From assembly GCA_942492025.1 (NCBI GenBank), contig CALODJ010000012.1:569272-633271 (forward strand): a stretch of 64,000 nt of DNA. The letters are read 5' to 3'. Within the stretch, counting starts at the first letter, position 1. The number at the start of each line of letters is the position of its first letter. Below the pieces are notes generated by a model. It worked only from the letters and a program-made list of their open reading frames with translations, made no database searches and was not told the origin of the DNA. Of this stretch, positions 6,692 to 58,539 are shown in pieces. The DNA comes from an uncultured Gammaproteobacteria bacterium (GTDB lineage: Bacteria; Pseudomonadota; Gammaproteobacteria; SZUA-229). Both the position numbers and the translations under genes were made by a program.

Positions 6692-7993
6692 ATGAAATTT
6701 ATCGTTAACAATGGTGGCAAGCTGTCCGGCGATATTCGAGTGCCGGGAGACAAGTCGATTTCGCATCGTTCGATCATGTTCGGTTCCATCGCCGAGGGTA
6801 CCAGCACGATCAGCGGTTTTCTCGAAGGTGAAGACAGCCTCAACACCTTGCGTGCCTTTCGGGCCATGGGTGTGCACATCGAAGGGCCCGACAACGGGCG
6901 CGTGATCATCCATGGCGTGGGTATGCATGGACTCAACAAACCGGAACAGGCGCTCGACCTAGGTAACTCGGGCACATCGATGCGTCTGCTCGCGGGTCTG
7001 CTCTCCGGGCAGACCTTTGACGTCGAACTCACCGGTGATGCTTCGCTGTCGAAACGGCCGATGGAACGCGTCACCCAACCCCTGCAGATGATGGGTGCAA
7101 AGGTTGTTACTGCAGAAGGCGGGCGCCCGCCACTGAAAATTTCAGGCGGTGGTGGTATTCGTGCCATTGATTACGCCTTGCCGATGGCGAGTGCGCAAGT
7201 CAAATCCTGCGTGCTGCTGGCCGGACTGTACGCTATTGGCAGAACCTGTGTAACCGAACCGGCACCGACCCGAGATCACACCGAGCGTATGCTGGATGCG
7301 TTTGGCTGCCCGGTAGAACAGTCTGGCGACACGGCCTGCATCGAGGGTCCGGCGACCCTGTCTGCCTGTGATATCGATGTGCCGGCTGACATTTCATCTG
7401 CAGCATTTTTTATGGTCGGTGCCAGTATTGCCGAGGGTTCGGACATTGTTCTTCAACACGTTGGCATCAATCCTACGCGCACCGGTGTGATCGAGATCCT
7501 GCGTCTGATGGGAGCTGATATCGAGCTGATGAACCTGTTCGAGGCCGGAGGTGAACCGGTGGCCGATATCCGGGTGCGCAGCGCGCATCTTAAAGGTATA
7601 CAGGTGCCTGAAGAGCTGGTACCACTGGCTATCGATGAGTTTCCGGTGATCTTCGTAGCTGCTGCCTTCGCCGAAGGCAGAACCGTTGTCAGCGGTGCCG
7701 CGGAATTGCGCGTCAAGGAAAGCGATCGCATTCAGGTGATGGCGGACGGATTGCAGGCGTTGGGTGTGAATGCCCGCGCGACGGATGATGGCATCATCAT
7801 CCAGGGCGGGGAAACAACAGGTGGTACGGTGCACAGCCATGATGATCACCGCATTGCGATGGCCTTTTCAATGGCTGCGCTGCGTGCCAGTGGTCCTGTT
7901 ATCATCGAAGACTGCGAGAATGTGAACACTTCGTTCCCGAATTTTGCAGGACTGGCTGCGGCGTCCGGTCTGGCCATTCAGGCAGAAGCCTGA
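6692..7993 (+). CDS. aroA: 3-phosphoshikimate 1-carboxyvinyltransferase (EPSP synthase)
   Basis: 433 aa. LPGDKSISHR and the other conserved AroA motifs are present. Confidence 0.92.
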   Translation: MKFIVNNGGKLSGDIRVPGDKSISHRSIMFGSIAEGTSTISGFLEGEDSLNTLRAFRAMGVHIEGPDNGRVIIHGVGMHGLNKPEQALDLGNSGTSMRLLAGLLSGQTFDVELTGDASLSKRPMERVTQPLQMMGAKVVTAEGGRPPLKISGGGGIRAIDYALPMASAQVKSCVLLAGLYAIGRTCVTEPAPTRDHTERMLDAFGCPVEQSGDTACIEGPATLSACDIDVPADISSAAFFMVGASIAEGSDIVLQHVGINPTRTGVIEILRLMGADIELMNLFEAGGEPVADIRVRSAHLKGIQVPEELVPLAIDEFPVIFVAAAFAEGRTVVSGAAELRVKESDRIQVMADGLQALGVNARATDDGIIIQGGETTGGTVHSHDDHRIAMAFSMAALRASGPVIIEDCENVNTSFPNFAGLAAASGLAIQAEA

Positions 7994-7997
7994 GCCC

Positions 7998-8687
7998 ATG
8001 AACACGAGCGATCCTGTACCGGTGATAACGCTGGACGGTCCGGGCGGGGCAGGCAAGGGCACCATTTGCCTGCAGCTGGCAGACAAACTGGGCTGGCATA
8101 TCCTCGACAGTGGCTCCCTGTATCGCCTGACGGCGTTCGAAGCGCTGCAAAAAAATGTCGCTGAAGAGCCGCAACTCATTGAAATAGCAAATAATATGAA
8201 GATTGCTTACCTGTCTGCTGAAGGCGGTTTGAAAATCCTGTTGGATCAGCAGGATGTAACTGAAGCGATCAGGACCGAAGCTGTCGGTACGCGGGCCTCC
8301 GAGATAGCCGCAATACCCGGCGTTCGCGAGGCACTACTGCAGCGCCAGCGCAGTTTCGCCAGGCCGCCAGGCCTGCTTGCGGATGGCAGGGATATGGGAA
8401 CTGTGGTTTTCCCCGGGGCTCAGTTGAAAATCTTTCTCACCGCGAGTCCTGCGGAACGTGCTAAAAGACGTTATAAGCAGTTGAAAGAAAAGGGAATAGA
8501 TGCTAACCTCCCTGATCTTGTCAATGAGCTCAAGGCTCGCGACAAGAGAGATTCCGAACGTAAGGCGGCACCCCTGAAGGCTGCAGACGATGCAGTGCTG
8601 CTCGATACCACTGAAATGAGTATCGAAGAAGTGGTTGATCAGGTGATGCATATGGCGAGCGAGCGCTTCGGTTTTGTCGAGGTCTGA
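7998..8687 (+). CDS. cmk: Cytidylate kinase
   Basis: It has a P-loop ITLDGPGGAGKGT. The start was moved to the ATG 4 nt after the aroA stop; the tracked ORF runs further upstream, overlapping aroA. Confidence 0.88.
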   Translation: MNTSDPVPVITLDGPGGAGKGTICLQLADKLGWHILDSGSLYRLTAFEALQKNVAEEPQLIEIANNMKIAYLSAEGGLKILLDQQDVTEAIRTEAVGTRASEIAAIPGVREALLQRQRSFARPPGLLADGRDMGTVVFPGAQLKIFLTASPAERAKRRYKQLKEKGIDANLPDLVNELKARDKRDSERKAAPLKAADDAVLLDTTEMSIEEVVDQVMHMASERFGFVEV

Positions 8688-8772
8688 ACCGGGTTCGGAC
8701 TGTCCGTTTAACTATTAACCCTTGTGTAGCAGCAGACGCCATTGTTGCAATACATTTATCAACTATTTAATC

Positions 8773-10446
8773 ATGTCCGAAAGTTTTGCCCAGTTATTTG
8801 AAGAAAGCCTGAATCAAACAGAAATGACAGCCGGTCAGGTTGTTATTGGCACCATCACCGATATTCGCGACGGTTATGTCATCGTTTCAGCAGGGCTTAA
8901 ATCCGAAGGTGTTATCCCGGATGATCAATTTAAAAACCTCAGCGGTGATCTCGAAGTCGCCATTGGCGACGATGTGGAAGTTGTTCTGGAAGCCGTCGAA
9001 GACGGTTTTGGAGAGACCCGTCTGTCACGCGAAAAAGCCAAGCGTGCCAAGGCCTGGAAGTCGCTCGAGACGTCCTATGAAACTGAAGAAATTATCACCG
9101 GTATCATTACCGGCAAAGTAAAAGGTGGCTTCACCGTCGAGCTGGGTGATATCCGTGCGTTCCTGCCTGGCTCACTGGTCGATGTGCGTCCGGTCAGAGA
9201 CACCTCATACCTCGAAGGTAAAGAGCTTGAGTTCAAGGTCATCAAGCTTGATCAGAAGCGCAATAATGTCGTGGTTTCACGTCGCGCCGTGGTCGAATCA
9301 GAATACAGTGCCGAGCGTGAAGCCTTGCTCAACACTATCGAAGAAGGCAAGCCCATCAAAGGCGTTGTCAAGAACCTCACTGATTACGGTGCGTTCCTCG
9401 ATCTGGGCGGTGTTGACGGTCTGTTGCACATCACAGACATGGCCTGGAAACGCGTGCGTCATCCCTCCGAAGTGGTCAACGTTGGTGATGAAATCAATGT
9501 CATGGTGCTCAAGTTCGACAAGGAGCGCAACCGCGTTTCTCTTGGTCTGAAGCAGCTCGATGAGGATCCATGGAGCGAAATTGCACGACGTTATCCGGAA
9601 GGTTCCAGACTGCACGGCAAGATCAGCAACATTACCGATTACGGCTGCTTTGTTGAAATTGAAGATGGTGTTGAAGGTCTGGTGCATGTGTCTGAGATGG
9701 ACTGGACCAACAAAAACATCAATCCAGCCAGCGTGGTCGCACTGGGTGATGAGGTCGAAGTCATGATCCTTGACATCGATGAAGAGCGCCGCCGAATTTC
9801 TCTGGGTATGAAACAATGCCAGCCTAATCCCTGGGATGAGTTCTCCGCAACACATAACAAGGGTGACAAGGTGAGTGGAAAGATCAAGTCGATTACCGAC
9901 TTTGGTATTTTTGTCGGACTTGACGGTGATATCGACGGGCTTGTGCACATGTCGGATATTTCCTGGGATGTCACCGGTGAAGAAGCCATCCGTAACTTCA
10001 AGAAAGGCGATACCATCGAAGCGGTTGTGCTATCTATAGATCCCGAACGTGAACGAATTTCACTGGGTATCAAGCAGATGGAACAGGACCCGGTATCTTC
10101 TTTTATGGGCGCTAACAAGAAGGGTTCGCTGGTAAAAGGTACGGTTATCTCCGTTGATGCCAAAGCTGCGATTGTAGATTTGGGTGATGGTGTCGAGGGC
10201 ACCTTACGCGCATCAGAACTATCACGCGACCGTGTTGAAGATGCATCGACTGTATTGAAAGTGGGTGATCAGGTTGAAGCCAAACTGATTGGTATTGATC
10301 GCAAGAGCCGGGCAATAAACCTTTCAGTCAAGGCAAAAGACTTCGATGAAGAAGCCGAAGCCATGAAAGACTACGCCAGCTCACAGCAGTCTGCCTCAAC
10401 TACACTGGGTGATTTGTTGAAGGAACAAATGGATTCCAACGACTAG
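8773..10446 (+). CDS. rpsA: 30S ribosomal protein S1
   Basis: Six S1 repeats. The start was chosen at [13 protein letters not shown]. The stop TAG at 10444-10446 directly abuts an IR1 repeat terminus. Confidence 0.92.
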
Positions 10447-10521
10447 CCCGCATTTCTCACCAGATGCGCCCTTGTACCTGAGCAGATATAGTTAATAATC
10501 AACTATTGAGGACGGTTTCAG

Positions 10522-10842
10522 ATGTCAGAAGAGACTAACGCAAGATCAATGATGAAATCTGAATTGATCGAGAAAATTGCGCGAAAGCAGAGCCATCTCG
10601 CATATAAGGATGTCGAGCTTGCAGTAAAAAGCCTACTTGAACAGATGAGTAACTCACTGTCGAACGGCGATCGTATAGAAATACGTGGTTTTGGCAGTTT
10701 CTCCTTGCACTACCGTCCACCTCGTTCAGGACGCAATCCAAAAACAGGTGACTCTGTTTCCTTGCCGGGTAAGTATGTGCCCCATTTTAAACCCGGCAAG
10801 GAGCTCAGGGAGCGCGTTAATGATTCGTTGAAGAAAGAATGA
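10522..10842 (+). CDS. ihfB: Integration host factor subunit beta
   Basis: 106 aa HU/IHF fold with the RGFGSF motif, preceded by a GAGGA RBS, in the conserved position after rpsA. Confidence 0.9.
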
Positions 10843-11163: not shown

Positions 11164-12342
11164 ATGATTGAGTTTTCTCAAATCCCCGATTGGGCGGTAC
11201 TGGTCCTTGCGACGATTATCGTTATATTGTGGATAGTAACCACGCGCAGCAAGCGCAAGACTTCCAGTAAAAGCCATCTCTCCAGCGAGTATTACAAGGG
11301 GCTCAATTATCTGCTCAATGATGAGCAGGACAAAGCGCTGGATATATTCGTGAAACTGATCGAGACCGATTGGGACACAATAGACACGCACTTCGCACTG
11401 GGCAAAATTTTTCGCAAGAATGGCGAGATAGACAAAGCCATCAAAATACATCAGGGCCTTATGTCCAGACCTTCGCTGCCAGATAAGTACCGCAGCAGCG
11501 TTTTGCTGGAACTCGGTTATGACTACCTGGGTGCAGGATGGTTTGACCGCGCCGAAGGTATGTTCAAGGAAGTATTGATTCATGACCCAGAATCGGAAAA
11601 GGCCCTGCAAAATCTCATTCTTATCTATCAACAGGAAAAAGACTGGTACAAGGCGATTGCGACCGCTGAAAACCTGTTTAAAGTCAGTCCAGCAAAGACA
11701 GGGCCGATGATTTCACAGTATTACTGCGAACTGGCAGACATTTCCAGTGCCAAGGGTGATGTAAGCCAGGTTGCGCGCAATGCAAAAAAGGCTCTGGGTT
11801 ATGATTCCGCATCCGTGCGCGCTTCTATCCTTCTGGCTGATATGGCCATGTCAACAGGTGACTATAAACAAGCAAAACATTTATTACAGCAGATCGAGCA
11901 GCAGGATGCGGAATTTATACCGCTGATTATGGATAAACTGATTGAATGCTATCATCGCCAGAATGAAACAGAAAGCTTGCTGGAGTACCTGGATCAACTC
12001 GAGAAGAGACATGAAACTCTGCCTTTGCTGGAGTCGCACGCACGGGTGATCGAACATTACAAGGGTACAAATGCAGCTATTAATTATGTCATGGATAAAT
12101 TACGGAAGCATCCAACGCTACAGGGAATGAGTCAGCTGCTCAGCTACAAAGACGCAGACAATAATGGTGAGGCGGCGATGATGCATGGTTTGATTACCGC
12201 TGTCGATGTGATCCAGCAGGGCCAATCGGCCTATCAGTGTAAACAATGTGGTTTCAAAACCAACACGCTCTACTGGTTATGTCCGGGTTGTCAAAATTGG
12301 AGCTCGGTAAAACCCTATTCTTGTGAACCCTCCTGTTTATGA
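11164..12342 (+). CDS. lapB: Lipopolysaccharide assembly protein B (TPR and rubredoxin-type zinc finger)
   Basis: It has an N-terminal TM helix, TPR repeats and a C-terminal CKQCGFKTNTLYWLCPGCQNW metal-binding motif, and precedes pyrF as in E. coli. Confidence 0.85.
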   Translation: MIEFSQIPDWAVLVLATIIVILWIVTTRSKRKTSSKSHLSSEYYKGLNYLLNDEQDKALDIFVKLIETDWDTIDTHFALGKIFRKNGEIDKAIKIHQGLMSRPSLPDKYRSSVLLELGYDYLGAGWFDRAEGMFKEVLIHDPESEKALQNLILIYQQEKDWYKAIATAENLFKVSPAKTGPMISQYYCELADISSAKGDVSQVARNAKKALGYDSASVRASILLADMAMSTGDYKQAKHLLQQIEQQDAEFIPLIMDKLIECYHRQNETESLLEYLDQLEKRHETLPLLESHARVIEHYKGTNAAINYVMDKLRKHPTLQGMSQLLSYKDADNNGEAAMMHGLITAVDVIQQGQSAYQCKQCGFKTNTLYWLCPGCQNWSSVKPYSCEPSCL

Positions 12343-15292: not shown

Positions 15293-16021
15293 CTAACTAA
15301 ATTCAACCAGCTCGAATTCCATATCGGCATTTGTGCGTAGATAGTTGCCGTGTTGGTACCAGTCGCCGAGGACGACTCTTTTCACCTTCTGACCATCAAG
15401 CTCGAATTCGTGAATTCCAGGCCTGTGGGTATGACCATGGATCAATACTTTAGTCTTAAATTCGCGCATGATATTTTCAACAGCGTGCTGGTTGACATCC
15501 ATTATTTCGGCCGATTTATCGGATGTGGCTTTTTCGCTGGTGTCGCGTAGTGAGCGGGCAACCCGTTCGCGCAAGGAAAGTGGCAGTAACAGAAAAAGCC
15601 GTTGATAGAATCTGTTGCGTACTTTGGCCCTGAAGTTTTGATAGGCGATATCGTCTGTGCACAACAAATCACCGTGCATCAACAGCACCGGTTGATGGTT
15701 CATGTGTGCTATACAGGGATCGTCGATGATTTCGAAGTAATGCCGACTGGCGAGCTTCTTGCCGACAAGAAAATCGCGATTACCGTGCATAAACCGGACC
15801 CGGGTGCCAGACTGGTGCAGATGATCGAGCGCGTTGAATACAGGTTGAAGGCCGGCTGCCTTGTCGTCATCACCAATCCAGTATTCGAGAAAATCGCCCA
15901 GGATGTAGAGCACATCGGCCTGAATTGCAATATCGTCAACAAACTTCTGAAACAGCCGGATAATCTCCGGCCTCTCTGGTGCAAGATGCAAGTCTGATAT
16001 GAACAGACTGTTGTCAGTCAT
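15293..16021 (-). CDS. lpxH: UDP-2,3-diacylglucosamine pyrophosphohydrolase
   Basis: 242 aa calcineurin-like metallophosphoesterase. It has N-terminal LFISDLHL and the GNRD and GHTH motifs. Confidence 0.88.
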   Translation of the reverse strand: MTDNSLFISDLHLAPERPEIIRLFQKFVDDIAIQADVLYILGDFLEYWIGDDDKAAGLQPVFNALDHLHQSGTRVRFMHGNRDFLVGKKLASRHYFEIIDDPCIAHMNHQPVLLMHGDLLCTDDIAYQNFRAKVRNRFYQRLFLLLPLSLRERVARSLRDTSEKATSDKSAEIMDVNQHAVENIMREFKTKVLIHGHTHRPGIHEFELDGQKVKRVVLGDWYQHGNYLRTNADMEFELVEFS

Positions 16022-16024
16022 GCA

Positions 16025-16522
16025 TCAAATTTCAGTGGCCGTTCTAATTTCGACGATATCTTCGGGCACATCGCTGTGACCGGATCGGTTGGTCGTGCTG
16101 ACCTTGGCGATCTCATCAACCACATCCATACCGTCAGTCACCTTCCCAAATACACAGTAACCCCAGCCCTGTACATTTGGTGCAGTGTAGTTCAAAAAGT
16201 CATTGTTTTTATGGTTAATGAAAAATTGGGCCGTTGCCGAATCCGGGTCCTGCGTGCGGGCCATTGCGATAGTGCCGCGATCATTGGGCAGGCCATTGTC
16301 CGCTTCATTTTTAATCGGATCCTGGGTACTTTTTTGCATCATCTGGTTATTGAAACCGCCCCCCTGTATCATGAAGTTCTTGATCACGCGATGGAAAATG
16401 GTGCCATCATAATAGCCTTCGCGCACATAGCTGAGGAAATTGCTTACGGTCTTCGGTGCTTTTTCTTCGTTGAGTTCGATGACAATGTCACCCATGGTGG
16501 TTTCGAGTTTGACAGTCGACAT
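16025..16522 (-). CDS. ppiB: Peptidyl-prolyl cis-trans isomerase B (cyclophilin)
   Basis: It carries the cyclophilin signature [15 protein letters not shown] and the [17 protein letters not shown] region. The start was set at [13 protein letters not shown]. Confidence 0.9.
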
Positions 16523-16769
16523 AATAATGGCCTTGTTTAGTTGGTCGATGTTTAAAAACGGATTATGAACGCGCAGTTTGCCCAAAGCGACGCAGCTTGG
16601 TCAACCTGAATCTATTTCAGTAATGATATTGTGTTGAACAGGGTGTTAACCGCGGAGGCGCGGAGAAATTTTTATGGTCTGTAGGAGCGGCTTGAGCCGC
16701 GATCCGCTGCAAATCGCGACTAAAGTCGCTCACAAAAACCTTAATAATTCTCTTTTTCTCCGCTCCTTT

Positions 16770-35030: not shown

Positions 35031-36050
35031 ATGCCATTTACGCTTTTTGAGTTAGCCGATATAACCGGAGCCGGGTTGTCTGGTCGCGGTGAAACTGTAA
35101 TTGACAGTGTAGCTGATATCACAAGCGGCAAAGCAGGCAGTATCGTTTTTGTTTCAAACACAAAATACAGCAAATATTTGCGCGACACAGATGCTAGCGC
35201 GATCATTGCAAGCGAGAAACTGTTGGCTGGCTGTCATAAGCCAGCCCTGGTTACTGAACAACCGCGCGTCGTATTTTCTAAAATTGCGCGGCTGCTGAAT
35301 CCATTGCCTGAAATCCAGCCCTGGATTTCCCCACATGCCGTAATAGCGGACGATGCTGATATTGATGCTTCGGCCAGGGTAGAGGCCTGCGTGGTTATTC
35401 AAAGCGGTGTCTCCATAGGGGCCGGTACATGGATATCGCCAGGATGCGTAATCGAGAGGAACGCCAGAATAGGGGTGAATACCCGGCTTTTTGCCAATGT
35501 CACTGTCGGTGAAAACTGTACAGTTGGTGACCATTCGATTTTACACTCTGGCGCGGTTATCGGTGCAGATGGTTTTGGCTTCGTCTGGGATAAGGACGCC
35601 TACATAAAAGTGCCGCAGCTGGGCTTTGTGCAAATCGGCAATAATGTCGAGATTGGAGCCAACACAACCATCGATCGCGGGACGATTGGGAATACGATTA
35701 TAGAAAACGGGGTAAAAATCGATAACCTGATTCAGCTGGGTCACAATGTGCGTATCGGTGAGCACACGACTATCTCCGGTCAGTCTGGCCTTGCCGGTTC
35801 GGTAAAACTGGGTAAAAAATGTATCATCGGTGGCGGTGTGGCTATCAGTGATAACCTTGAAATCGCTGATAATGTCACGCTGGCTGGCAGGTCGAATGTG
35901 GCTAATTCAATCAAAGAGCCCGGGATTTATGCATCTGTTATACCTGTCGTCGAAGCAGGAAAATGGCGCAGGATACTCACCAGAATAAGACAACTGGATG
36001 ATTTGGCAAGGCGAATAAAAGCGCTTGAATCAAAAAAAACATCAACATAA
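35031..36050 (+). CDS. lpxD: UDP-3-O-acylglucosamine N-acyltransferase
   Basis: 339 aa with left-handed beta-helix hexapeptide repeats and an N-terminal LpxD domain. Confidence 0.9.
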   Translation: MPFTLFELADITGAGLSGRGETVIDSVADITSGKAGSIVFVSNTKYSKYLRDTDASAIIASEKLLAGCHKPALVTEQPRVVFSKIARLLNPLPEIQPWISPHAVIADDADIDASARVEACVVIQSGVSIGAGTWISPGCVIERNARIGVNTRLFANVTVGENCTVGDHSILHSGAVIGADGFGFVWDKDAYIKVPQLGFVQIGNNVEIGANTTIDRGTIGNTIIENGVKIDNLIQLGHNVRIGEHTTISGQSGLAGSVKLGKKCIIGGGVAISDNLEIADNVTLAGRSNVANSIKEPGIYASVIPVVEAGKWRRILTRIRQLDDLARRIKALESKKTST

Positions 36051-36062
36051 TGGAGATGCGCT

Positions 36063-36509
36063 GTGAGTATGATGCTGGCAGAAGAAGTTAAAAATTTTTT
36101 ACCCCATCGCTATCCCTTTCTGCTGGTTGACCGGGTGCTTGAATGCACACCGGGTGATACGCTGACAGCGATAAAGAACGTATCCATCAATGAGCCATAC
36201 TTTCTTGGGCACTTTCCTCAAAAAGCGATCATGCCGGGTGTGCTTATCATCGAGGCATTGGCACAGGCCACCGGTATCCTGGGTTTCAGGACGATGAGCG
36301 AGACACCCAGAGATGATCTGCTCTATATGCTTGTTGGTGTTGACAATGTCCGTTTCAAGCGACAGGTCATTCCGGGTGATCAGCTGATCCTCAAAGCCAA
36401 ACTGGAGAAACGATCCAGGATCATCTGGAAGTTTACCTGCGAAGCCAGCGTCGACGGTGAACTGGTGACTTCTGCCAGTATGTTATGTGCAGCAACCGAG
36501 AAGGAATAA
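36063..36509 (+). CDS. fabZ: 3-hydroxyacyl-ACP dehydratase
   Basis: 148 aa hot-dog fold (LPHRYPFLLVDRV, GHFP). Confidence 0.92.
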   Translation: MSMMLAEEVKNFLPHRYPFLLVDRVLECTPGDTLTAIKNVSINEPYFLGHFPQKAIMPGVLIIEALAQATGILGFRTMSETPRDDLLYMLVGVDNVRFKRQVIPGDQLILKAKLEKRSRIIWKFTCEASVDGELVTSASMLCAATEKE

Positions 36510-36513
36510 GCCT

Positions 36514-37284
36514 GTGATTCATGAGACCGCAATCATCGATGAATCGGCCGTGATCGCAAGTGATGCAGAAATTGGCCCCTACACTATCGTCGGAGCTGAT
36601 GTACACATTGGTTCTGGCACCATCCTGGGGCCACACGTGGTCCTCAAGGGCCCGACGCAGATTGGCAGAGACAATCGGATATTCCAGTTTGCATCGATTG
36701 GTGAAGATCCGCAGGATCTGAAGTATCAAGGCGAGCGATCAAGACTGGTCATTGGTGATCGCAATACTGTTCGAGAAGCTGTAACCATACATCGCGGTAC
36801 CGCTCAAGACAACAGTCTGACACAAATCGGCAATGACAACCTGTTTATGGCTTATGTGCATATTGCGCACGATTGTATTCTGGGTAACAACATCATTCTT
36901 GCCAACAACACCACACTCGCGGGTCATGTAATTGTTGAAGATTATGCGATTTTGGGAGGCTTTACCGCTGTTCACCAGTTTACCCGCCTGGGCGCACATT
37001 GCTTTACCGGTTTTGCCACCGCACTGGATCGCGACGTATTGCCGTATTTCACCGTTGCTGGTAACCGAGCCAGGGCCCGAGGCATCAATAAGGAGGGTCT
37101 GGTCAGAAAAGGGTTCAAACCCGAGACCATTCGTGCGCTGCAGGACACCTACAAAATTCTCGTGAAATCAAAAGGCACTTTAATAGAAAAACTCGAGCGC
37201 GTATCCGAGCTTGCAGCGATGCATAGCGAAGTCCAGCAGATCATCGATTTTCTGAACAAGAGCGAACGTGGCTGGGTTCGGTAA
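36514..37284 (+). CDS. lpxA: Acyl-ACP--UDP-N-acetylglucosamine O-acyltransferase
   Basis: The hexapeptide beta-helix IHETAIIDESAVI continues to the catalytic-His region VHIAHDC. The start was proposed at the GTG at 36514, which has an AAGGAA RBS; the tracked ATG ORF overlaps fabZ. Confidence 0.85.
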   Translation: MIHETAIIDESAVIASDAEIGPYTIVGADVHIGSGTILGPHVVLKGPTQIGRDNRIFQFASIGEDPQDLKYQGERSRLVIGDRNTVREAVTIHRGTAQDNSLTQIGNDNLFMAYVHIAHDCILGNNIILANNTTLAGHVIVEDYAILGGFTAVHQFTRLGAHCFTGFATALDRDVLPYFTVAGNRARARGINKEGLVRKGFKPETIRALQDTYKILVKSKGTLIEKLERVSELAAMHSEVQQIIDFLNKSERGWVR

Positions 37285-42711: not shown

Positions 42712-43779
42712 ATGAATAACGATTTACAGAATTACCAGCTGGTCGAGACCCGGCTGCAGGAAAAAATGGACAACGGTACCACACGCTGCAACCTGTGCCT
42801 GTGGCGCTGCAAGATTGGCCATGGTCAGCGTGGATTCTGCCAGGCCCATGTCAACCGCAATGGTACCCTGTATAACCTTTCCTACGGCATTCTCTCCTCG
42901 ATAGACATAGACCCGATTGAAGGCAAGCCGGTCAGACACTTTCGCCCGGGTACCCGGGTCATGTCAGTCGGCAGCTACGGCTGCAGTTTTCGCTGTGGTG
43001 GCTGCCATAATCTTGAGATTTCATGGGGCGTACGTGCACTGGATGAACTGGCCCGTGGTGAATCCACGGAAGTCTGGGTCACCCCTGAAAGCCTGATCGA
43101 GAGCGCGCAGCGAGCCGGTGTGCAGGGAATAGCCTTCACCTATTCCGAGCCGGCGGTCTGGCTGGAATATGTCATCGATGTCTGTGAACTGGCACACCAG
43201 GCTGGCCTGTACACCGTGTACGTCTCCAACAGTTTTGTCACCGATGAGGCATTGCAGCTGGTGGCGCCGCATCTGGATGTTATGTGCTCGGATATCAAAA
43301 GCATGCGCGATGACTTCTACAGGGAAATCTGCCGTCCTGCCACGGTGGATCAGGTGTTGCATGCCATAAAGACGGCACACGATCTGGGTGTTCACGTCGA
43401 GACGAGAACCAACATCATTCCTGGCAAGAACGATAACCCGGCAGAGCACTTCGCGATAGCCAGCTGGGTGCATGATAATCTTGGCGCTGACAGCCCGTGG
43501 CATATCACCCGGTTTTTTCCGGCGTACCAGTTGATGGATATTCCACCCACGCCTGATGAAGCCCTGTTCGCAGCCGCTGAACAGGGCAGGCGTGCCGGCC
43601 TCGAGCATGTTTACGTGTATAATGACAAGGGTTGCGACTGTGCCAAGGAAAACCGCCCGGTCGAGTTTTATCTGAACGCCCAGGCGGAAAATGTGCACCA
43701 GGTGAAGAAATGCTCGGCCAGCTGCTGTGGCGATGAAGGCATCTTATTGAAGAAATACGAAGAGAAATCCAATCTGTAG
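42712..43779 (+). CDS. Radical SAM enzyme, AmmeMemoRadiSam-system (AmrS)-like, PFL-activase related
   Basis: 355 aa. It has an N-terminal Cys cluster (TRCNLCLWRCKIGHGQRGFC), a Cx3Cx2C motif in GCSFRCGGCHN and a C-terminal HITRFFPAYQLMDIPPTP-like motif characteristic of this family. Confidence 0.6.
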   Translation: MNNDLQNYQLVETRLQEKMDNGTTRCNLCLWRCKIGHGQRGFCQAHVNRNGTLYNLSYGILSSIDIDPIEGKPVRHFRPGTRVMSVGSYGCSFRCGGCHNLEISWGVRALDELARGESTEVWVTPESLIESAQRAGVQGIAFTYSEPAVWLEYVIDVCELAHQAGLYTVYVSNSFVTDEALQLVAPHLDVMCSDIKSMRDDFYREICRPATVDQVLHAIKTAHDLGVHVETRTNIIPGKNDNPAEHFAIASWVHDNLGADSPWHITRFFPAYQLMDIPPTPDEALFAAAEQGRRAGLEHVYVYNDKGCDCAKENRPVEFYLNAQAENVHQVKKCSASCCGDEGILLKKYEEKSNL

Positions 43780-43793
43780 ACGTTGAGGTTGTC

Positions 43794-44078
43794 ATGACAA
43801 GAATGGTTCAGTGTGTGGTACTAAATCAAGAGGCCGAAGGGCTGGATGCGCCGCCACACCCCGGTGAGCTGGGTGTGCGCATTTACGAAAATGTTTCGAA
43901 GGAAGGCTGGAAACAATGGCTCGAGCGCCTGACAACGATTATCAATGAGAACGGCCTGAATACCGCAGATCCTAAAAATATCGAGCTGATCGAAAGGCAT
44001 ATGGTCGGCTTTTTCTTTCAGGAAGGCGATTATGGCCAGGCCCCGGCAGGCTTCCAGGCGGGTGGCGGTAAAAAGTAA
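43794..44078 (+). CDS. yggX: Fe(2+)-trafficking / oxidative-damage protection protein YggX
   Basis: 94 aa, MTRMVQCVVLNQEAEGLDAPPHPGELGVRIYENVSKEGWKQW, aligning closely to E. coli YggX. Confidence 0.85.
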   Translation: MTRMVQCVVLNQEAEGLDAPPHPGELGVRIYENVSKEGWKQWLERLTTIINENGLNTADPKNIELIERHMVGFFFQEGDYGQAPAGFQAGGGKK

Positions 44079-44116
44079 TCGACCTCGTCGATACATCGCA
44101 TTCAATTAGTTGTGCC

Positions 44117-45421
44117 TTAAGCCGATGCCAGCCTGAAAATCGGTACGGTGACAAAATTCAGTTTTGCGTGCGCTGTTCTGAGCGCCTCGGTGGCTTCATC
44201 CGACGTCTCGGCCTGCGCGAAGATGAATCCAAGATACTGGTTACCCTCGGGCAGGGGTATCAACTCATGGCCCTCACTGATCGTGATATCGATTTTTTCG
44301 ATATGGGGCACTTTCTGAGCAGCCAGTATACCTTCGACGCGTCGCAGTAGTCCTGCTCGCCGGATCGGTATCATCATCACGCCGCGGCTTTGTTCGATCG
44401 GCGTGGGCTTCATCGGCTGCCCAATGGCCAGTGACACAGTCAGCTGCTCCAGGCTCTTGTTCGTGCCGCTATCCAGCATGCGGGCGCAATCACCGCCGAT
44501 CGTACGTGAGGCGACCTCGAGTATCCAGGCATCGCTTGCGTTGAGGCGAAGCTCGGCATGCACTGGCCCGGTTCTCAAGCCAAAAGCCGTGCAAGCCTGC
44601 TGTACACGCTGTTTGACCCGGTTCAGTGAAGCAACATCGAGCTGGGACGGCGTGACGTAAATGGTTTCTTCGAAGAAAGGGCCGACTAGAGCATCCGGTT
44701 TATCGAATACAGCCAGTGTGTGCAATTCGCCCTGGTGTAAATAGCCTTCATAGGCAATCTCGATGCCGTCGATGTAGTCTTCGACCAGTACATGGCTGCG
44801 TTCAAACGCGTCCCGTGATTCCGCGATGATGTTGCCTACGCGTTCACAGGCAGTCCTGAATTCGTCTTCGTTGTTGGCGCGTATCACACCGCGGCTGGCC
44901 GACATATTGACCGGTTTGATCACGCAGGGCCACGGCAGGCCGGCCATTTGCCTGTCCAGCGGCCTTTTGATATCAATCAGACAATGACGCGGCACAGGGC
45001 ATCCGGACCGCATCAGGTGCGCTCGCGCGAGGTCCTTGCGGCGTGTAAGCCGAGCGGCTTCTGGCGGGTTGTGGGGCAGGCCAAGCCGGTTGGCTGCGAG
45101 CGCTGCCAGTTCGACGGTGCTGTCATCACTACCGATGATGCCGGCAAAAGGATCCAGTCTGGCCGCATGCAGTATGGCGCTCAACGCCGACGCATGATCA
45201 TCCAGATCAATATTGAGACCCTGGTTGACCTCTGTTGTCAGTGAGTGCTCGCCCCGGGAGGCAATCAGTACTCGCACCCCCATCTGCTGTGCAGCGCCAA
45301 TGTAAGGCGCTATGCGGTAGCTGTTGGGTTGGGATATTAAAAGCAGGCGTCTACTGATTGCTCTGGTACTGTCAGGCTGTTTATTGGGGTTCGTACTGCA
45401 TAGCCCCACAGACAGAAACAT
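44117..45421 (-). CDS. ATP-grasp domain protein (carboxylate-amine ligase-like), function unknown
   Basis: About 434 aa with a central ATP-grasp region (PWPCVIKP...SRGV, EDYIDGIE, ELRL). The start is uncertain, since the tracked ATG lies inside a hairpin; MGVRVLIAS is an alternative. Confidence 0.55.
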   Translation of the reverse strand: MFLSVGLCSTNPNKQPDSTRAISRRLLLISQPNSYRIAPYIGAAQQMGVRVLIASRGEHSLTTEVNQGLNIDLDDHASALSAILHAARLDPFAGIIGSDDSTVELAALAANRLGLPHNPPEAARLTRRKDLARAHLMRSGCPVPRHCLIDIKRPLDRQMAGLPWPCVIKPVNMSASRGVIRANNEDEFRTACERVGNIIAESRDAFERSHVLVEDYIDGIEIAYEGYLHQGELHTLAVFDKPDALVGPFFEETIYVTPSQLDVASLNRVKQRVQQACTAFGLRTGPVHAELRLNASDAWILEVASRTIGGDCARMLDSGTNKSLEQLTVSLAIGQPMKPTPIEQSRGVMMIPIRRAGLLRRVEGILAAQKVPHIEKIDITISEGHELIPLPEGNQYLGFIFAQAETSDEATEALRTAHAKLNFVTVPIFRLASA

Positions 45422-45528
45422 GGCCTGTTTCTGCCTGTGGGAAACCGGTTAAAAACAACGTGTTTTCGGCCCGGCCTCAAATGCGCAGGATATTGTCGAC
45501 TGTGGCGCCCCCAGGTGAGAATTACGGG

Positions 45529-45906
45529 CTAGCCACAACCGCCGCCTGCTGAGCCACAGGCACCGCATACACCCGATCCTCCGGTGTTGGCGAATACGTT
45601 CTTGAATACAAAACTCGCGTTTGCACCCTGGGTCTGGTAGTCGATTTCGACACCTTCAAGGTAGCTGAGCGCAACGGCGTCGACATAGACCTTTAAACCC
45701 TCTTGCTCTAGCATGCAGTCGTATTCGTTCGGCTGGTCGACAAATGTCATGCCGTAACTCATGCCACCGCAGCCACCGCCTGAAACGAATATACGAACAC
45801 CGTTGACGCCATCCTCGTTTTCAGTCAATGCCAGCAACTGCTTGACGGCCTCGGGAGAGACATTGATCTGATCGGATAATTGATTGTTGAACTGTATGTC
45901 TGACAT
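45529..45906 (-). CDS. HesB/IscA/ErpA-family iron-sulfur cluster insertion protein with an unusual Gly/Cys-rich C-terminus
   Basis: 126 aa. The start is MSDIQFNNQL. It has the conserved GGGCGGMSYGMTF and a C-terminal VCGACGSAGGGCG in place of the usual CGCGESF. Confidence 0.65.
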   Translation of the reverse strand: MSDIQFNNQLSDQINVSPEAVKQLLALTENEDGVNGVRIFVSGGGCGGMSYGMTFVDQPNEYDCMLEQEGLKVYVDAVALSYLEGVEIDYQTQGANASFVFKNVFANTGGSGVCGACGSAGGGCG

Positions 45907-46066: not shown

Positions 46067-46876
46067 ATGTCTGATCCCAATATTCATCCCACGGCCATCG
46101 TTTCGTCCCGAGCAAAACTTGCCAATGGCGTTCAGGTCGGGCCCTATGCGGTTATTCACGATCATGTCGAGATTGGCGCCAACACCACGCTTGGTCCACA
46201 TGTCGTAATCTGCGACTACGTACGTCTGGGCGCCGGCAACCGGGTGCACGCACACGCTGTGATCGGCGATCTGCCTCAGGACATATCATTTGATCCGGCG
46301 ACTGAAACCTGGGTCGAGATCGGTGATGCCAATACACTCAGAGAAGGCGTTACCATCCATCGGGCGACTTCACCATCGACAACAACCAGCGTGGGTTCCA
46401 ACGTGTATATGATGGCTTACAGCCATATCGGTCATGACTGTCGAGTAGGTGATGGTGTCATAATCACGATCAACACCAATGTGGGGGGGCATGTCGAGAT
46501 AGGCGATAAAGCTGTGCTCGGCGGCAGTGTCGCTGTGCACCAGTTTTGCCGTATCGGTCAGTTTGCTATGGTCGCTGGCCTGATCGCGGTCAGAAAAGAC
46601 GTGTTACCCTACACCATGATCGCCGGGGATCCGGCACGACATTACCGTCTCAACACGGTCGGATGTCGTCGCGCCGGTATCACGGGTGAGCGCTATCGCC
46701 GCCTGGAGCGGGCCTATCGAGCACTTCGGTCAGGCAACAAATCACTGCAGGGAATAGCTGAGAGCGAGGAAGTCGCACATTTACGTGCATGGCTGGCAAC
46801 AGACTCGAAACGTGGTCTGAGCGGATTTCTGCGCGAACAGAAACTTAGCCCGGATATCGCACGAAGGCGGATATGA
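46067..46876 (+). CDS. Second LpxA-family acyltransferase (paralog of UDP-GlcNAc O-acyltransferase)
   Basis: 269 aa with hexapeptide repeats throughout and the catalytic His context SHIGHDC, plus a C-terminal helical domain. It is clearly distinct from the lpxA at 36514-37284. Confidence 0.7.
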   Translation: MSDPNIHPTAIVSSRAKLANGVQVGPYAVIHDHVEIGANTTLGPHVVICDYVRLGAGNRVHAHAVIGDLPQDISFDPATETWVEIGDANTLREGVTIHRATSPSTTTSVGSNVYMMAYSHIGHDCRVGDGVIITINTNVGGHVEIGDKAVLGGSVAVHQFCRIGQFAMVAGLIAVRKDVLPYTMIAGDPARHYRLNTVGCRRAGITGERYRRLERAYRALRSGNKSLQGIAESEEVAHLRAWLATDSKRGLSGFLREQKLSPDIARRRI

Positions 46877-46989
46877 AAAGCCGCGGATTAGTCAATATTT
46901 CAATCAGCGGGCTAGCATTGACAAGGTATTGTTCAGTTACAGTCTGTCCTATTTGTTTTTACGAACAAGTTGGCGTCACGATTGTAGGT

Positions 46990-47115
46990 TTTGCCTCGTT
47001 TGTTGATGAAATAAAAACGGACATATCGTAGGGTGTGCCGTGCGCACCAATCGGCAGCAATCAGGCTTTTTTGTGCTGATTTCGGTGCGCACGGCGCACC
47101 CTACCTCACCTCTTT
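46990..47115. repeat. Core palindrome copy (47028-47104) with the left interior segment and a degenerate right flank
   Basis: TTGTTGATGAAATAAAAACGGACATATC GTAGGGTGTGCCGTGCGCACC...GGTGCGCACGGCGCACCCTACC. Confidence 0.8.
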
Positions 47116-47660
47116 CATCGTACACGGATACCCGAAAGGTCGGTGTCAGTTGATCGATGGTAACAACCCTGTCGGATATGCTAACGCAAGATCCACCAGG
47201 GAATTAGCACATGTTGCCTAGGTCTCCAAATGCGGTACCGAGGTACCCCCGTTCACGCGTCAACTGATTGGCGCGATATGTCAAGATAATACGATTAAAG
47301 CGCATTAAATTAAGCATTGTCAGTGTTGATTAGCAGGGTACTGATGTGGTCATCCGATCTGTTCAATCACGTCGGGTTAATGCATAAGTCCTGGTTTGAT
47401 CCGACAATGGCACTCGCGTGTTGTCAGTTGCGGTGGAGTGTCACGCCGCAAGGCAAAGGTCGATGTAGGCACATCGGCATAGGCCGGCATTCCTGATGTA
47501 TTGAGGCGCGCGACGAGAATGGCATTGATTACGAAATAAGGTTAGAAACTTCACGAACCTGTTCACGCTGGGTGTGTGACGGGGTCGGCGGCAAAGTCTG
47601 TATCTTGCTGCTGGCCCCATTTTTGTCTGTTGACATCCACGCGCAGAAGTTTGAAACCTT

Positions 47661-49416: not shown

Positions 49417-50172
49417 TTATTGAATGGCAAATTCTGCCATGAGTGGAATATGATCAGAAAGTCGCTTCCACGGTTTTCCATGCAGGCGTTTGCAATCGAG
49501 CAGTTCGAGGCCACGGGTATATATCCGGTCCATATTGAATATTGGCAGCCATCCTGGGAATGACCGGGCGTATTTGCCAGACGATTTCTTGAAGACTTCA
49601 TCAACATCCAGGTCATGCGTGAGATACTTCTCGGCTTTACGTGTCCAGTCATTGAAATCGCCCGCGATGATCAGAGGAGCGTCATGGGGGACGTGCGAAT
49701 CAATTCTGCTGACCAGGGTTGACCATTGGCGTTGTCGCTCCAGGCCGAAAAGGCCAAAGTGAACACAGATTGCATGCACATGCTGTCTTGTTTCGGTCAA
49801 CTCAATCGTACCGTGCAGAAGGCTGCGACTGGCCGTCTGCATCAACGATACGTCGATGTTTTCCCATTCGACGATAGGGTACTTGCTCAGGATAGCGTTG
49901 CCATGATGGCCCGTTTTATAGATCGCATTTTTCCCATAAGCATGGTGATGCCATATTTCATCGGCAAGAAACTCGAACTGGTTGTTGCTGGGCCAGTCGT
50001 CAAACCGTTTTTTTGAAAAGTCACGTTCACCATGGATTTCCTGTAACAACAGCAGGTCTGCATCGATCTGGCGAATGGATTCTTTGATATCGTGCAGAAT
50101 ATAGCTGCGATTGGTCGTGTTGAAACCCTTGTGAATGTTGTAGGTCAGAACTTTGAGAGTTTTTCTTTCCAC
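49417..50172 (-). CDS. Endonuclease/exonuclease/phosphatase (EEP) family protein
   Basis: 251 aa with N-terminal LKVLTYNIHKG, the conserved catalytic Asp/His regions (GDFND, SDHIP). Confidence 0.7.
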   Translation of the reverse strand: MERKTLKVLTYNIHKGFNTTNRSYILHDIKESIRQIDADLLLLQEIHGERDFSKKRFDDWPSNNQFEFLADEIWHHHAYGKNAIYKTGHHGNAILSKYPIVEWENIDVSLMQTASRSLLHGTIELTETRQHVHAICVHFGLFGLERQRQWSTLVSRIDSHVPHDAPLIIAGDFNDWTRKAEKYLTHDLDVDEVFKKSSGKYARSFPGWLPIFNMDRIYTRGLELLDCKRLHGKPWKRLSDHIPLMAEFAIQ

Positions 50173-50567
50173 GATCTAATAAAATCATTCAATAGTAAAA
50201 GTAACAGAACAAAGATAATGTAGCCGTTCTATATTGGAGCTATTATACTTCTGGAACATATATATCTGCTCCTGTTTATTATAGTCTCAAATGGTGCACC
50301 AATAGTAATGCGTACGGTGCTCGAAAGCAGCTACGACGCTGCGGTTGAATTGTCTTACACATTCCCTGACGGCAGGCCCCTGAAGCGATATTACCGGCCA
50401 TCATCTTGATGTACACCTTCAGTCTGGATGTGTTATCAATAATGATTCTCGTTAGCGTGCTTGTCATCATGGGATTGATTCTGTCGTCAGTCCGTACAGA
50501 CTGGGTATACGTGACAGACCGTATTAGTTTATTATCTATGCAGAATTCAGTGCGTTAATTTCAATAC

Positions 50568-51155
50568 ATGCATATTGTCAATCGAGATATCTATAATCTG
50601 CCGAATTTTGTCAGTTTTGTACGAATCCTGTTAGCGCCAGTTTTATTCTATTTCGCATTTGCTCAGGAACCCATCTGTTTCCTCGTCACACTGATGTTTT
50701 CCGCATTTACGGACGTGTTGGATGGATTTCTGGCACGCCTGTTGAATCAGATCACGGAAATGGGATCGCGCCTGGACAGCTGGGGCGATTTCACCATTTA
50801 CAGCACTATGGCTATTTGCGCGTGGATACTCTGGCCAGGCATTGTTGTTCAGGAGTTAACGTCATATGTTGTCATCGTTATCAGTATTGTTTCACCGGTA
50901 ATTGCTGGCCTGGTGAAATTCAAAAGCATCACCAGTTATCATACCTGGACAGTAAAAGTGGCTGTCGTGGTTACATTCGTTGGCTACATTCTGTTGTTTG
51001 CAGGGTGGCTCGATTGGCCCTTCAGGGTGGCGGCTGTATTCAGCGCCGTAGCTGCGGCCGAGGAAATCGCCATAACGCTGCTGAGTCGCCAAGAACATGT
51101 CGACGTCAGAAGTATATGGGCGGCGTTGAAATACAACGAAGAGGATAACACCTAG
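50568..51155 (+). CDS. CDP-alcohol phosphatidyltransferase family protein (small, 195 aa)
   Basis: It has D-G-x2-A-R...G-x3-D-x3-D (DVLDGFLARLL...GSRLDSWGDF) and about 5 TM helices. The stop TAG abuts an IR1 terminus. Confidence 0.7.
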   Translation: MHIVNRDIYNLPNFVSFVRILLAPVLFYFAFAQEPICFLVTLMFSAFTDVLDGFLARLLNQITEMGSRLDSWGDFTIYSTMAICAWILWPGIVVQELTSYVVIVISIVSPVIAGLVKFKSITSYHTWTVKVAVVVTFVGYILLFAGWLDWPFRVAAVFSAVAAAEEIAITLLSRQEHVDVRSIWAALKYNEEDNT

Positions 51156-56724: not shown

Positions 56725-58539
56725 ATGGTACATCGACAAACCAGCAAGCCGCATTCTGACAGAAAAGACTGGCAGAATCTTAAGCGATTGTTCCCGTTCG
56801 TCTGGGAATACAGGGGCAGGGTCGTCATAGCCCTGACCTGTCTAGTTCTGTCCAAACTGGCATTCGTCGGCATGCCACTCGTGCTCAAGGAAATTGTTGA
56901 CGGGTTGGACAGTGAAAGCGGTGTGGTTGTTCTGCCGATCGTGCTGTTGCTGGCTTACGGCGTCTTGCGCATGGCGAGCAGCCTGTTCAATGAATTACGC
57001 GATGCCGTGTTCGCCAGGGTAAGGTACCATGCGATGCGGGGGATATCGCAGAAGGTGCTAAGCCATCTGTATTCCTTGTCATTACGCTATCACCTGGACC
57101 GAAAGACAGGCGGCATCATCCGCGATCTCGAACGCGGTACCAGCAGCCTCAGCTCGATCCTGAATTATCTGGTTTTCAATATCATTCCGACAGCGGCTGA
57201 ATTTGCCCTGGTTGCCCTGATTCTTCTGGGAAAATATGAAGCAAAATTCGCCTTTGTCACCTTCATTACGGTTGTGGTTTATATCGTCTTCACGTTATCG
57301 GTAACAGAATGGCGCATGCATTACCGCGTGCAGATGAATTCGCTGGAGTCCGAAGCCAACACATACGCTGTCGATGGCATAATTAATTACGAGACCGTGA
57401 AATATTTCAATAATGAGGATTACGAATTATCACGCTATGACGCGACCCTGAAAGAATGGGAGCACGCAGCTGTGAAAAGCCAGAATTCGATGTCCCTACT
57501 CAATTTCGGACAGGGTGCGGTGATTGCCGTCGGGGTGACATTCATGATGGTTTTCGCCGCGCAGGGTGTCGTCAGTGGAAGCATGAGCCTGGGCGATCTG
57601 GTTCTGGTCAATGCCATGATGCTGCAACTGTTTTTGCCGCTGAACTTCCTGGGTGTCATTTATCGTGCCCTGAAATACTCGCTTGCCGACATGGATATGA
57701 TGATGCGCTTGCTCGATACCGGTCAGGAGATCATGGACAAGCCATGGGCCAGGCCGCTAAAGGTTGATCATGCCCATGTCCGTGTTGAACACGTTTCCTT
57801 TGCCTACAACGAGGACAGGCAGATTCTGGATGATGTCAGTTTTGAGATAGCGACGGGTAAAAAGGTTGCTGTGGTTGGTCCATCGGGTGCAGGCAAGTCA
57901 ACACTGGCCAGACTGCTTTTTCGATTTTATGAGGCTGATGATGGCCGTATCCTGGTTGATGAACAGGACATCAGCGATGTGACCCAGGCCAGTCTGAGGG
58001 AGAATGTTGGCATTGTGCCGCAGGACACTGTGCTTTTTAACCAGTCGATTTATCACAACATTCATTACGCCAACCAGAAAGCGACGATGGAGGATATCAT
58101 CGAAGCCGCCAGGGTGGCGAATATTCATGAGTTTATTCAGAGTCTGCCGGATGGCTACGAAACCATTGTCGGTGAACGAGGCCTGAAGCTTTCCGGTGGT
58201 GAGAAACAGCGTATTGCCATCGCGCGTGTCATTCTGAAGAATCCGCGTATTCTTGTTTTTGATGAAGCGACGTCATCACTCGATTCGCGCTCGGAACAGT
58301 CGATACTGGCATCACTCAAGCAAGTCGCCAGACAACATACCACGCTGGTTATTGCTCACCGGCTGTCAACTATCATCGACGCTGACAACATTCTGGTGCT
58401 GGACAAGGGCAGAATCATCGAGCAGGGCAACCATCAGGCGCTGCTGGCCCAGGATGGACTGTATGCGCATCTGTGGCGGTTGCAGCAGGAAAAACGCGAA
58501 TACGAACTGGCACTGGAGACCGTTGCCGATACGGTCTGA
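56725..58539 (+). CDS. ABC transporter fused permease/ATPase (exporter type IV fold, ATM1/MsbA-like)
   Basis: 604 aa with six TM helices, then Walker A GPSGAGKST, the signature LSGGEKQR and Walker B ILVFDEATS. Confidence 0.85.
   Translation: MVHRQTSKPHSDRKDWQNLKRLFPFVWEYRGRVVIALTCLVLSKLAFVGMPLVLKEIVDGLDSESGVVVLPIVLLLAYGVLRMASSLFNELRDAVFARVRYHAMRGISQKVLSHLYSLSLRYHLDRKTGGIIRDLERGTSSLSSILNYLVFNIIPTAAEFALVALILLGKYEAKFAFVTFITVVVYIVFTLSVTEWRMHYRVQMNSLESEANTYAVDGIINYETVKYFNNEDYELSRYDATLKEWEHAAVKSQNSMSLLNFGQGAVIAVGVTFMMVFAAQGVVSGSMSLGDLVLVNAMMLQLFLPLNFLGVIYRALKYSLADMDMMMRLLDTGQEIMDKPWARPLKVDHAHVRVEHVSFAYNEDRQILDDVSFEIATGKKVAVVGPSGAGKSTLARLLFRFYEADDGRILVDEQDISDVTQASLRENVGIVPQDTVLFNQSIYHNIHYANQKATMEDIIEAARVANIHEFIQSLPDGYETIVGERGLKLSGGEKQRIAIARVILKNPRILVFDEATSSLDSRSEQSILASLKQVARQHTTLVIAHRLSTIIDADNILVLDKGRIIEQGNHQALLAQDGLYAHLWRLQQEKREYELALETVADTV

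Follow-up and report, generated by a model that had tools for sequence, protein, structure and literature searches.

The 64-kb stretch of DNA analysed here (the window) carries, besides a canonical gammaproteobacterial lpxA (lpxA1), a second lpxA gene, lpxA2. Its product is a true LpxA and is neither a pseudogene product nor a hexapeptide protein of the NeuD/PglD/VioB, WxcM or LpxD type, as follows from its HMM scores, its retained active site, its AF2 fold, its synteny and its dN/dS values. We put at roughly even odds (about 0.5) that lpxA2 provides a functional lipid A isozyme, probably one for UDP-GlcNAc3N and/or for a longer acyl chain. LpxA enzymes are homotrimeric left-handed beta-helix proteins that use acyl-ACP to place an R-3-hydroxyacyl chain on position 3 of a UDP-GlcNAc-type sugar. 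The backbone (ester-linked GlcN or amide-linked GlcN3N) and the primary chain length of lipid A influence the stability of the outer membrane and recognition by innate immunity, and we know of no enzymatic solution for how the first acylation is allocated in bacteria with mixed or hybrid backbones. Two LpxAs that are conserved together yet differ strongly, one of them of a type repeatedly found with gnnA/gnnB, offer a concrete and testable model in which lipid A precursors of two kinds may be made in one cell; cultured relatives include Nitrosococcus halophilus and Methylomonas.

A second LpxA encoded away from the lipid A cluster

The first-pass annotation had described an LpxA-family open reading frame of 269 codons with a SHIGHDC motif, lying apart from an lpxD-fabZ-lpxA cluster that holds a canonical lpxA. 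Each of these points was borne out by the open reading frame positions, by the location of the motif at residues 119-125 and by NCBIfam models (Table 1). The frame opens with ATG and is unbroken. LpxA2 scored 297.1 bits against the NCBIfam LpxA equivalog NF003657 (cut-off, 226) and 275.8 bits against TIGR01852 (cut-off, 231.05), and its Pfam domains are Hexapep and the LpxA-specific C-terminal Acetyltransf_11. Other hexapeptide families, which the annotation had named as a possible outcome of HMM scoring, fell well short of their thresholds: LpxA2 reached 78.3 bits with the NeuD/PglB/VioB (PglD-type) model TIGR03570 (cut-off, 160.8) and 95.7 bits with the LpxD model TIGR01853 (cut-off, 242.5).

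LpxA2 and LpxA1 are 41% identical over 237 aligned residues, and lpxA2 is an orphan in the window, 9 kb from lpxD-fabZ-lpxA1. The best PDB matches of LpxA1 are the LpxAs of Pseudomonas aeruginosa (306 bits) and Escherichia coli (293 bits). The gene order ahead of lpxA1 is bamA-skp-lpxD-fabZ, and lpxB does not come after it in the window.

Table 1. Positions of lpxA2, lpxA1 and associated features in the window
Feature	Position	Strand	Description and basis
lpxH (UDP-2,3-diacylglucosamine diphosphatase)	15293..16021	-	NF003743, 300 bits (cut-off, 134)
lpxD	35031..36050	+	ORF; lpxD-fabZ-lpxA1 order kept in L005 and L091 (tblastn)
fabZ	36063..36509	+	ORF; homologues in L001, L004 and L005 are of the FabA/FabZ fold (Pfam)
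lpxA1	36514..37284	+	Canonical gammaproteobacterial lpxA, 256 aa; NF003657, 366 bits
Phe167 of LpxA1, hydrocarbon-ruler position	37012..37014	+	HMMER alignment
ATP-grasp, L-amino-acid-ligase-like	44117..45421	-	Pfam families of homologues; survey of 80 loci
HesB/IscA A-type Fe-S carrier, ErpA-like	45529..45906	-	TIGR00049, 81.5 bits; ErpA equivalog, 77.5 bits (cut-off, 117)
lpxA2	46067..46876	+	269 aa; second LpxA-family acyl-ACP:UDP-sugar 3-acyltransferase; ORF, NCBIfam, Pfam, AF2
SHIGHDC motif	46421..46441	+	LpxA2 residues 119-125; alignment to E. coli LpxA
Gly171 of LpxA2, hydrocarbon-ruler position	46577..46579	+	Alignments; E. coli Gly173, P. aeruginosa Met169

The fold of LpxA2 was modelled with AF2 from a 121-sequence alignment (pLDDT, 94.8). 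The best 30 matches of this model in the PDB were all LpxAs (TM, 0.66-0.89; mostly at least 0.81), headed by Leptospira interrogans LpxA (3HSQ; TM, 0.89; rmsd, 1.5 Å). The lead of the Leptospira enzyme among solved LpxAs is marginal both in sequence (186.9 versus 186.5 bits) and in structure (TM, 0.89 versus 0.88), and the sequence matches of LpxA2 to solved LpxAs are roughly equal, at 117-187 bits. A model built from 14 sequences had a pLDDT of 73.5 and matched right-handed beta-helix proteins, and it was rejected as an artefact. For left-handed beta-helix proteins, AF2 with a shallow alignment can thus mislead by combining medium confidence with wrong fold matches, which the deeper alignment fixed in the case of LpxA2.

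Active-site and hydrocarbon-ruler residues

Residues were compared with the E. coli LpxA reference sequence, as confirmed by alignment to 1LXA, and their conservation was assessed in a set of 119 LpxA2 homologues of at least 56% identity. In the alignment, His120 of LpxA2 corresponds to His122 of E. coli LpxA, and His123, present in all 119 clade members, corresponds to the catalytic base His125. LpxA2 retains the equivalents of E. coli H99, H122, H125, H144, H160, Q161, Q73, D74, N198 and R204, and those of H125, H99, H160, Q161, N198 and R204 are invariant across the set. Relative to E. coli, Lys76 is replaced by Ser, Glu200 by Val and His191 by Pro. The Lys76 equivalent is lost clade-wide (Ser, Gly, Ala or Thr), the Glu200 equivalent is Val or Ile, and an RHYRLN motif in LpxA2 is specific to the clade. 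Leptospira LpxA is likewise without Lys76 and Glu200, having Gly and Val in their place. Loss of Lys76 was considered as a marker of sugar selectivity and was rejected: the gnnA-gnnB-linked LpxAs of Rhodocyclales and Geobacteraceae retain the lysine. Furthermore, no signature dividing gnn-linked from unlinked LpxAs was found in the LpxA alignment.

The two paralogs differ at the hydrocarbon ruler. LpxA2 has Gly171 at this position, where 116 of the 119 clade members have glycine, and LpxA1 has Phe167, which in the HMMER alignment faces Met169 of P. aeruginosa LpxA (5DEM) and Gly173 of E. coli LpxA (1LXA). We take this to be the chain-length position, with Gly173 giving C14 in E. coli and Met169 giving C10 in P. 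aeruginosa; Wyckoff et al. are said to have found in 1998 that a Gly/Met swap switches the C14/C10 preference between these two enzymes. Glycine in LpxA2 as opposed to phenylalanine in LpxA1 predicts, from this one residue, a longer acyl chain for LpxA2.

These residues also fit the main rival explanation, which does not involve a second sugar. LpxA2 may be a chain-length or condition-specific isozyme only, which would use UDP-GlcNAc with a longer R-3-hydroxyacyl-ACP, or act under other expression conditions, so that an ordinary GlcN-GlcN lipid A would carry more varied primary O-linked chains. We regard this as possible, with the odds against it. Besides the ruler residues, it can draw on Psychrobacter and Segatella, for which the presence of two LpxA homologues is a proposed source of acyl heterogeneity (PMC4557000, PMC12643348). 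It leaves unexplained, however, why the extra copy is of this foreign type and did not arise by duplication of lpxA1.

Conservation, selection and origin of lpxA2

Both lpxA genes are syntenic in six related genomes or contigs (L001, L004, L005, L007, L090 and L091), of which L001 (the same locus as L010) comes from the Thiotrichales MAG CP070838.1. The arrangement kept in these six loci is lpxD-fabZ-lpxA1 ... rSAM-yggX / ATP-grasp-erpA-like / lpxA2. LpxA2 identity across them is 64-100%, and no orthologue has an interrupted reading frame. Against orthologues, dN/dS of lpxA2 is about 0.07-0.15, the upper limit of 0.15 following from saturation at synonymous sites together with a dN of about 0.2. 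These codon comparisons show purifying selection on lpxA2, whose rate of evolution is about double that of lpxA1 (dN of about 0.21 versus 0.10). A pseudogene, the other outcome that the annotation had allowed for, is contradicted by the intact frame, the retained catalytic residues and a dN/dS of at most 0.15.

It is improbable that lpxA2 is redundant, decaying or unrelated to lipid A, whether as an unneeded, horizontally acquired lpxA or as an enzyme that acylates another UDP-sugar. The orphan position, the doubled rate and the replacement of the Lys76 and Glu200 equivalents could be read in this way, as could the lack of a consensus sigma-70 match in a promoter scan 5' of lpxA2, a scan that was judged uninformative. 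Against it, no orthologue frame is broken, dN/dS stays low even with synonymous sites saturated, the catalytic and UDP-binding positions show no variation, and Lys76 and Glu200 are likewise replaced in Leptospira LpxA, a bona fide LpxA. Members of the LpxA2 clade also lie inside lipid A clusters (L008 and L171).

A genome scan with context mapping and an NJ tree placed LpxA2 in a 22-locus clade (bootstrap, 0.95), and LpxA1 grouped with the E. coli and Burkholderia type. The clade comprises the window lineage, the gammaproteobacterial MAGs L009 and L011, the MAGs L006 and L013, many Methylococcales including Methylomonas rivi, "Ca. Nitrosoglobus" (L002) and a Marinithermus-like (Deinococcota) contig, L008. 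We know of no characterised member. LpxA2 is 63% identical to the LpxA of L008 and 59% identical to that of Nitrosococcus halophilus or Nitrosoglobus, as against 41% to LpxA1. Because of these identities and its separate clade, LpxA2 appears to be an old or horizontally acquired lineage and not a local duplicate; on this comparison it is not a recent duplicate in any case. The LpxA of L008 clusters at 90% with Marinithermus hydrothermalis WP_013703153.1, which suggests transfer of the LpxA2 type between phyla.

Linkage of LpxA2-type genes to gnnA and gnnB

UDP-GlcNAc3N, from which amide-linked lipid A derives, is the product of GnnA and GnnB (PMC5644692, PMC3342949). Acidithiobacillus, which the first-pass annotation had offered as an example of a bacterium with two LpxA homologues, is cited in these papers for GnnA/GnnB only and not for two LpxA homologues. 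The annotation had also remarked that lpxA2 does not lie beside gnnA/gnnB-like genes and had taken its substrate to be unclear on that account. The observation holds, since tblastn of the 64-kb window found no gnnA, gnnB or lpxB homologue; it says little about the substrate, because gnnA/gnnB are often unlinked from lpxA (PMC5644692). In Thiohalomonas and Nitrosococcus, lpxB is found in a gnnA-gnnB-lpxB operon elsewhere in the genome, and such an operon could be present elsewhere in the source genome too. In a search for GnnA homologues, CP070838.1 was absent among the best 120 matches listed (identity of at least 65%).

Among relatives, gnnA lies within 10 kb of the LpxA2-type gene in 5 of the 22 clade loci, and also in cultured N. 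halophilus; the other 17 loci have no gnnA nearby. The arrangements are varied. In L002 (the "Ca. Nitrosoglobus" locus), L003 and N. halophilus Nc4 (L171; CP001798.1), gnnA-gnnB-lpxB is convergent with the LpxA2-type gene. The order in L008 is lpxC-gnnA-fabZ-lpxA (7886-10759), and gnnA is directly upstream of the LpxA2-type lpxA in L013 and directly downstream of it in L022. Just outside the clade, L023 has an lpxA1-type gene, gnnA, lpxA' and lpxB, and five betaproteobacterial loci have gnnA-gnnB-lpxA' with neither lpxD nor fabZ nearby. Other lipid A genes adjoin the LpxA2-type gene or its near relatives in L008, L002, L171 and L023. The best model for the GnnA-like proteins is UDP-GlcNAc 3-dehydrogenase, with scores below its cut-off. 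Linkage to gnnA is also common for the single-copy LpxAs of Nitrospirota and Desulfobacterota and is thus not specific to the LpxA2 clade.

These contexts bear on the proposal that LpxA2 differs from LpxA1 in chain length or expression alone. The lack of gnnA/gnnB in the window and of a nearby gnnA in most clade loci counts in favour of that proposal, but the clade and its near relatives are repeatedly linked to gnnA/gnnB, and in independent arrangements. The earlier suggestion that the two LpxA homologues differ in sugar or chain-length selectivity therefore gains comparative support, as far as it can be read from gene neighbourhoods and from the differing ruler residue. We infer the sugar and chain-length preferences of LpxA2, as well as the presence of gnnA/gnnB elsewhere in the source genome, and for the sugar this is so because the window holds none of gnnA, gnnB and lpxB and because gnnA also accompanies single-copy LpxAs of other phyla.

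The neighbouring Fe-S carrier and ATP-grasp module

The first-pass annotation had placed lpxA2 divergently next to an ErpA-like gene and an ATP-grasp gene. Both do lie on the opposite strand, and the carrier misses the ErpA equivalog cut-off (Table 1). They are part of a conserved cluster (42712-45906) of an AmmeMemoRadiSam-type radical SAM gene (TIGR04337, 233.6 bits), a YggX-like gene, the ATP-grasp gene and the HesB/IscA A-type carrier gene. The module was surveyed in 80 metagenome loci that encode a homologue of the ATP-grasp protein. In about 45 of these the carrier gene is paired with the ATP-grasp gene, accompanied by YggX and often by the radical SAM gene, at ATP-grasp identities down to about 42%. 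LpxA occurred only in the window lineage (L090 and L091) and in L111, where it is 4 kb away. Membership of lpxA2 in the module was accordingly rejected, the module recurring widely across the 80 loci without LpxA, and the adjacency is lineage-specific and gives no sign of shared function.

A role for LpxA2 with the Fe-S carrier, ATP-grasp, YggX and radical SAM proteins in a pathway other than ordinary lipid A synthesis is, on these data, very improbable. The four genes do flank lpxA2 in the window lineage, the genes run co-linear with an lpxA-like gene in a distant MAG (L056), where the carrier comes first, then ATP-grasp, radical SAM and the lpxA-like gene, and in L009 and L011 the LpxA2 orthologue adjoins an AMMECR1-Memo gene and a radical SAM gene. 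Against this stand the rarity of LpxA among the module loci and the fact that most loci of the LpxA2 clade are without the module. In the two distant gammaproteobacterial loci L056 (9989-12675) and L111 (12519-15220), the lpxA-like gene is directly upstream of fabA-fabB and not after fabZ.

Comparison with characterised LpxAs and known lpxA pairs

Leptospira interrogans LpxA (PDB 3HSQ/3I3A/3I3X) is selective for UDP-GlcNAc3N and specific for C12. It resembles LpxA2 in being its best solved-structure match in both sequence and structure, in having all catalytic residues in common with it and in lacking Lys76 and Glu200 (Ser and Val in LpxA2). It differs in that it is about 42% identical, falls outside the LpxA2 clade in the tree and is the single LpxA of its host. 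The reported chain-length ruler of the Leptospira enzyme, Lys171, presumably corresponds to E. coli position 176, at which LpxA2 has Ala. The E. coli and P. aeruginosa enzymes (1LXA and 5DEM), canonical UDP-GlcNAc O-acyltransferases, have the fold, the trimer-type architecture and the catalytic histidine in common with LpxA2. LpxA1 is of their type. LpxA2 has 39-41% identity to them, and its gene lies apart from lpxD-fabZ. The LpxAs of N. halophilus Nc4 and "Ca. Nitrosoglobus" are in the same clade as LpxA2 (59% identity) and have the same motif set; theirs are convergent to a gnnA-gnnB-lpxB operon, whereas no gnn gene or lpxB is near lpxA2.

Second lpxA genes are already known elsewhere, and lpxA2 extends the known diversity of lipid A by a small step without representing a new type of system. 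Legionella has lpxA paralogues, and we know of no in vitro selectivity data for any such LpxA pair. Capnocytophaga canimorsus has two lpxA genes together with gnnA/gnnB and makes a hybrid GlcN3N-GlcN lipid A (PMC3342949), and second lpxA genes are also present in Segatella, other Bacteroidetes and Psychrobacter (PMC12643348, PMC4557000). As in the window, each of these genomes encodes two LpxA homologues that are about 40-45% identical (PMC3342949, PMC12643348, PMC4557000). Both copies of C. canimorsus cluster with lpxC/lpxD, whereas the second copy in the window is an orphan, and the known pairs differ from LpxA2 in phylogenetic clade and in host group, which here is chemolithotroph-like Gammaproteobacteria.

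In the reading that we favour, lpxA2 would be an expressed, functional second LpxA beside the housekeeping lpxA1, from a clade that may have spread horizontally and that elsewhere is the LpxA encoded beside gnnA/gnnB. LpxA1, with Phe at the ruler, would put a short O-linked chain on UDP-GlcNAc; LpxA2, with Gly at the ruler, would N-acylate UDP-GlcNAc3N and/or take a longer chain. Both products would enter shared LpxC, LpxD, LpxH and LpxB steps, and the resulting lipid A would contain GlcN3N or be a hybrid, and its acylation would be heterogeneous. A stricter form, which we entertain only tentatively and think doubtful as it stands, would make the LpxA2 clade a horizontally mobile LpxA dedicated to GlcNAc3N that, together with a canonical LpxA, yields hybrid GlcN3N/GlcN lipid A by a strict division of labour. 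Ser or Gly in place of Lys76 and the RHYRLN motif would then mark a clade that moved between Gammaproteobacteria and Deinococcota, and each paralog would determine for itself which sugar it acylates and how long the primary chain is.

Other features of the window

Further envelope genes are present in the window. The lpxH gene adjoins a cyclophilin-type PPIase gene (together 15293-16585), as in E. coli. A LapB-like TPR/rubredoxin protein is encoded at 11164-12342, and an MsbA-like ABC exporter at 56725-58539 (400 bits against an MsbA equivalog cut-off of 602).

The 785 bp that come after lpxA2 (46877-47660) hold no convincing open reading frame, and an Rfam search of this gap gave no credible family. 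An imperfect palindrome lies at about 47028-47104, and a block at 47514-47627 is 77-93% conserved in four related loci. L001 and L005 have a 78-aa open reading frame downstream of lpxA2 that is not conserved in the window. Farther downstream, GC content drops to 0.42 at 50001-51000. In relatives (L001, 14008-15098; compare 50568-51155 of the window), a CarS-like (CDP-archaeol-synthase-like) gene accompanies the gene for a CDP-alcohol phosphatidyltransferase.
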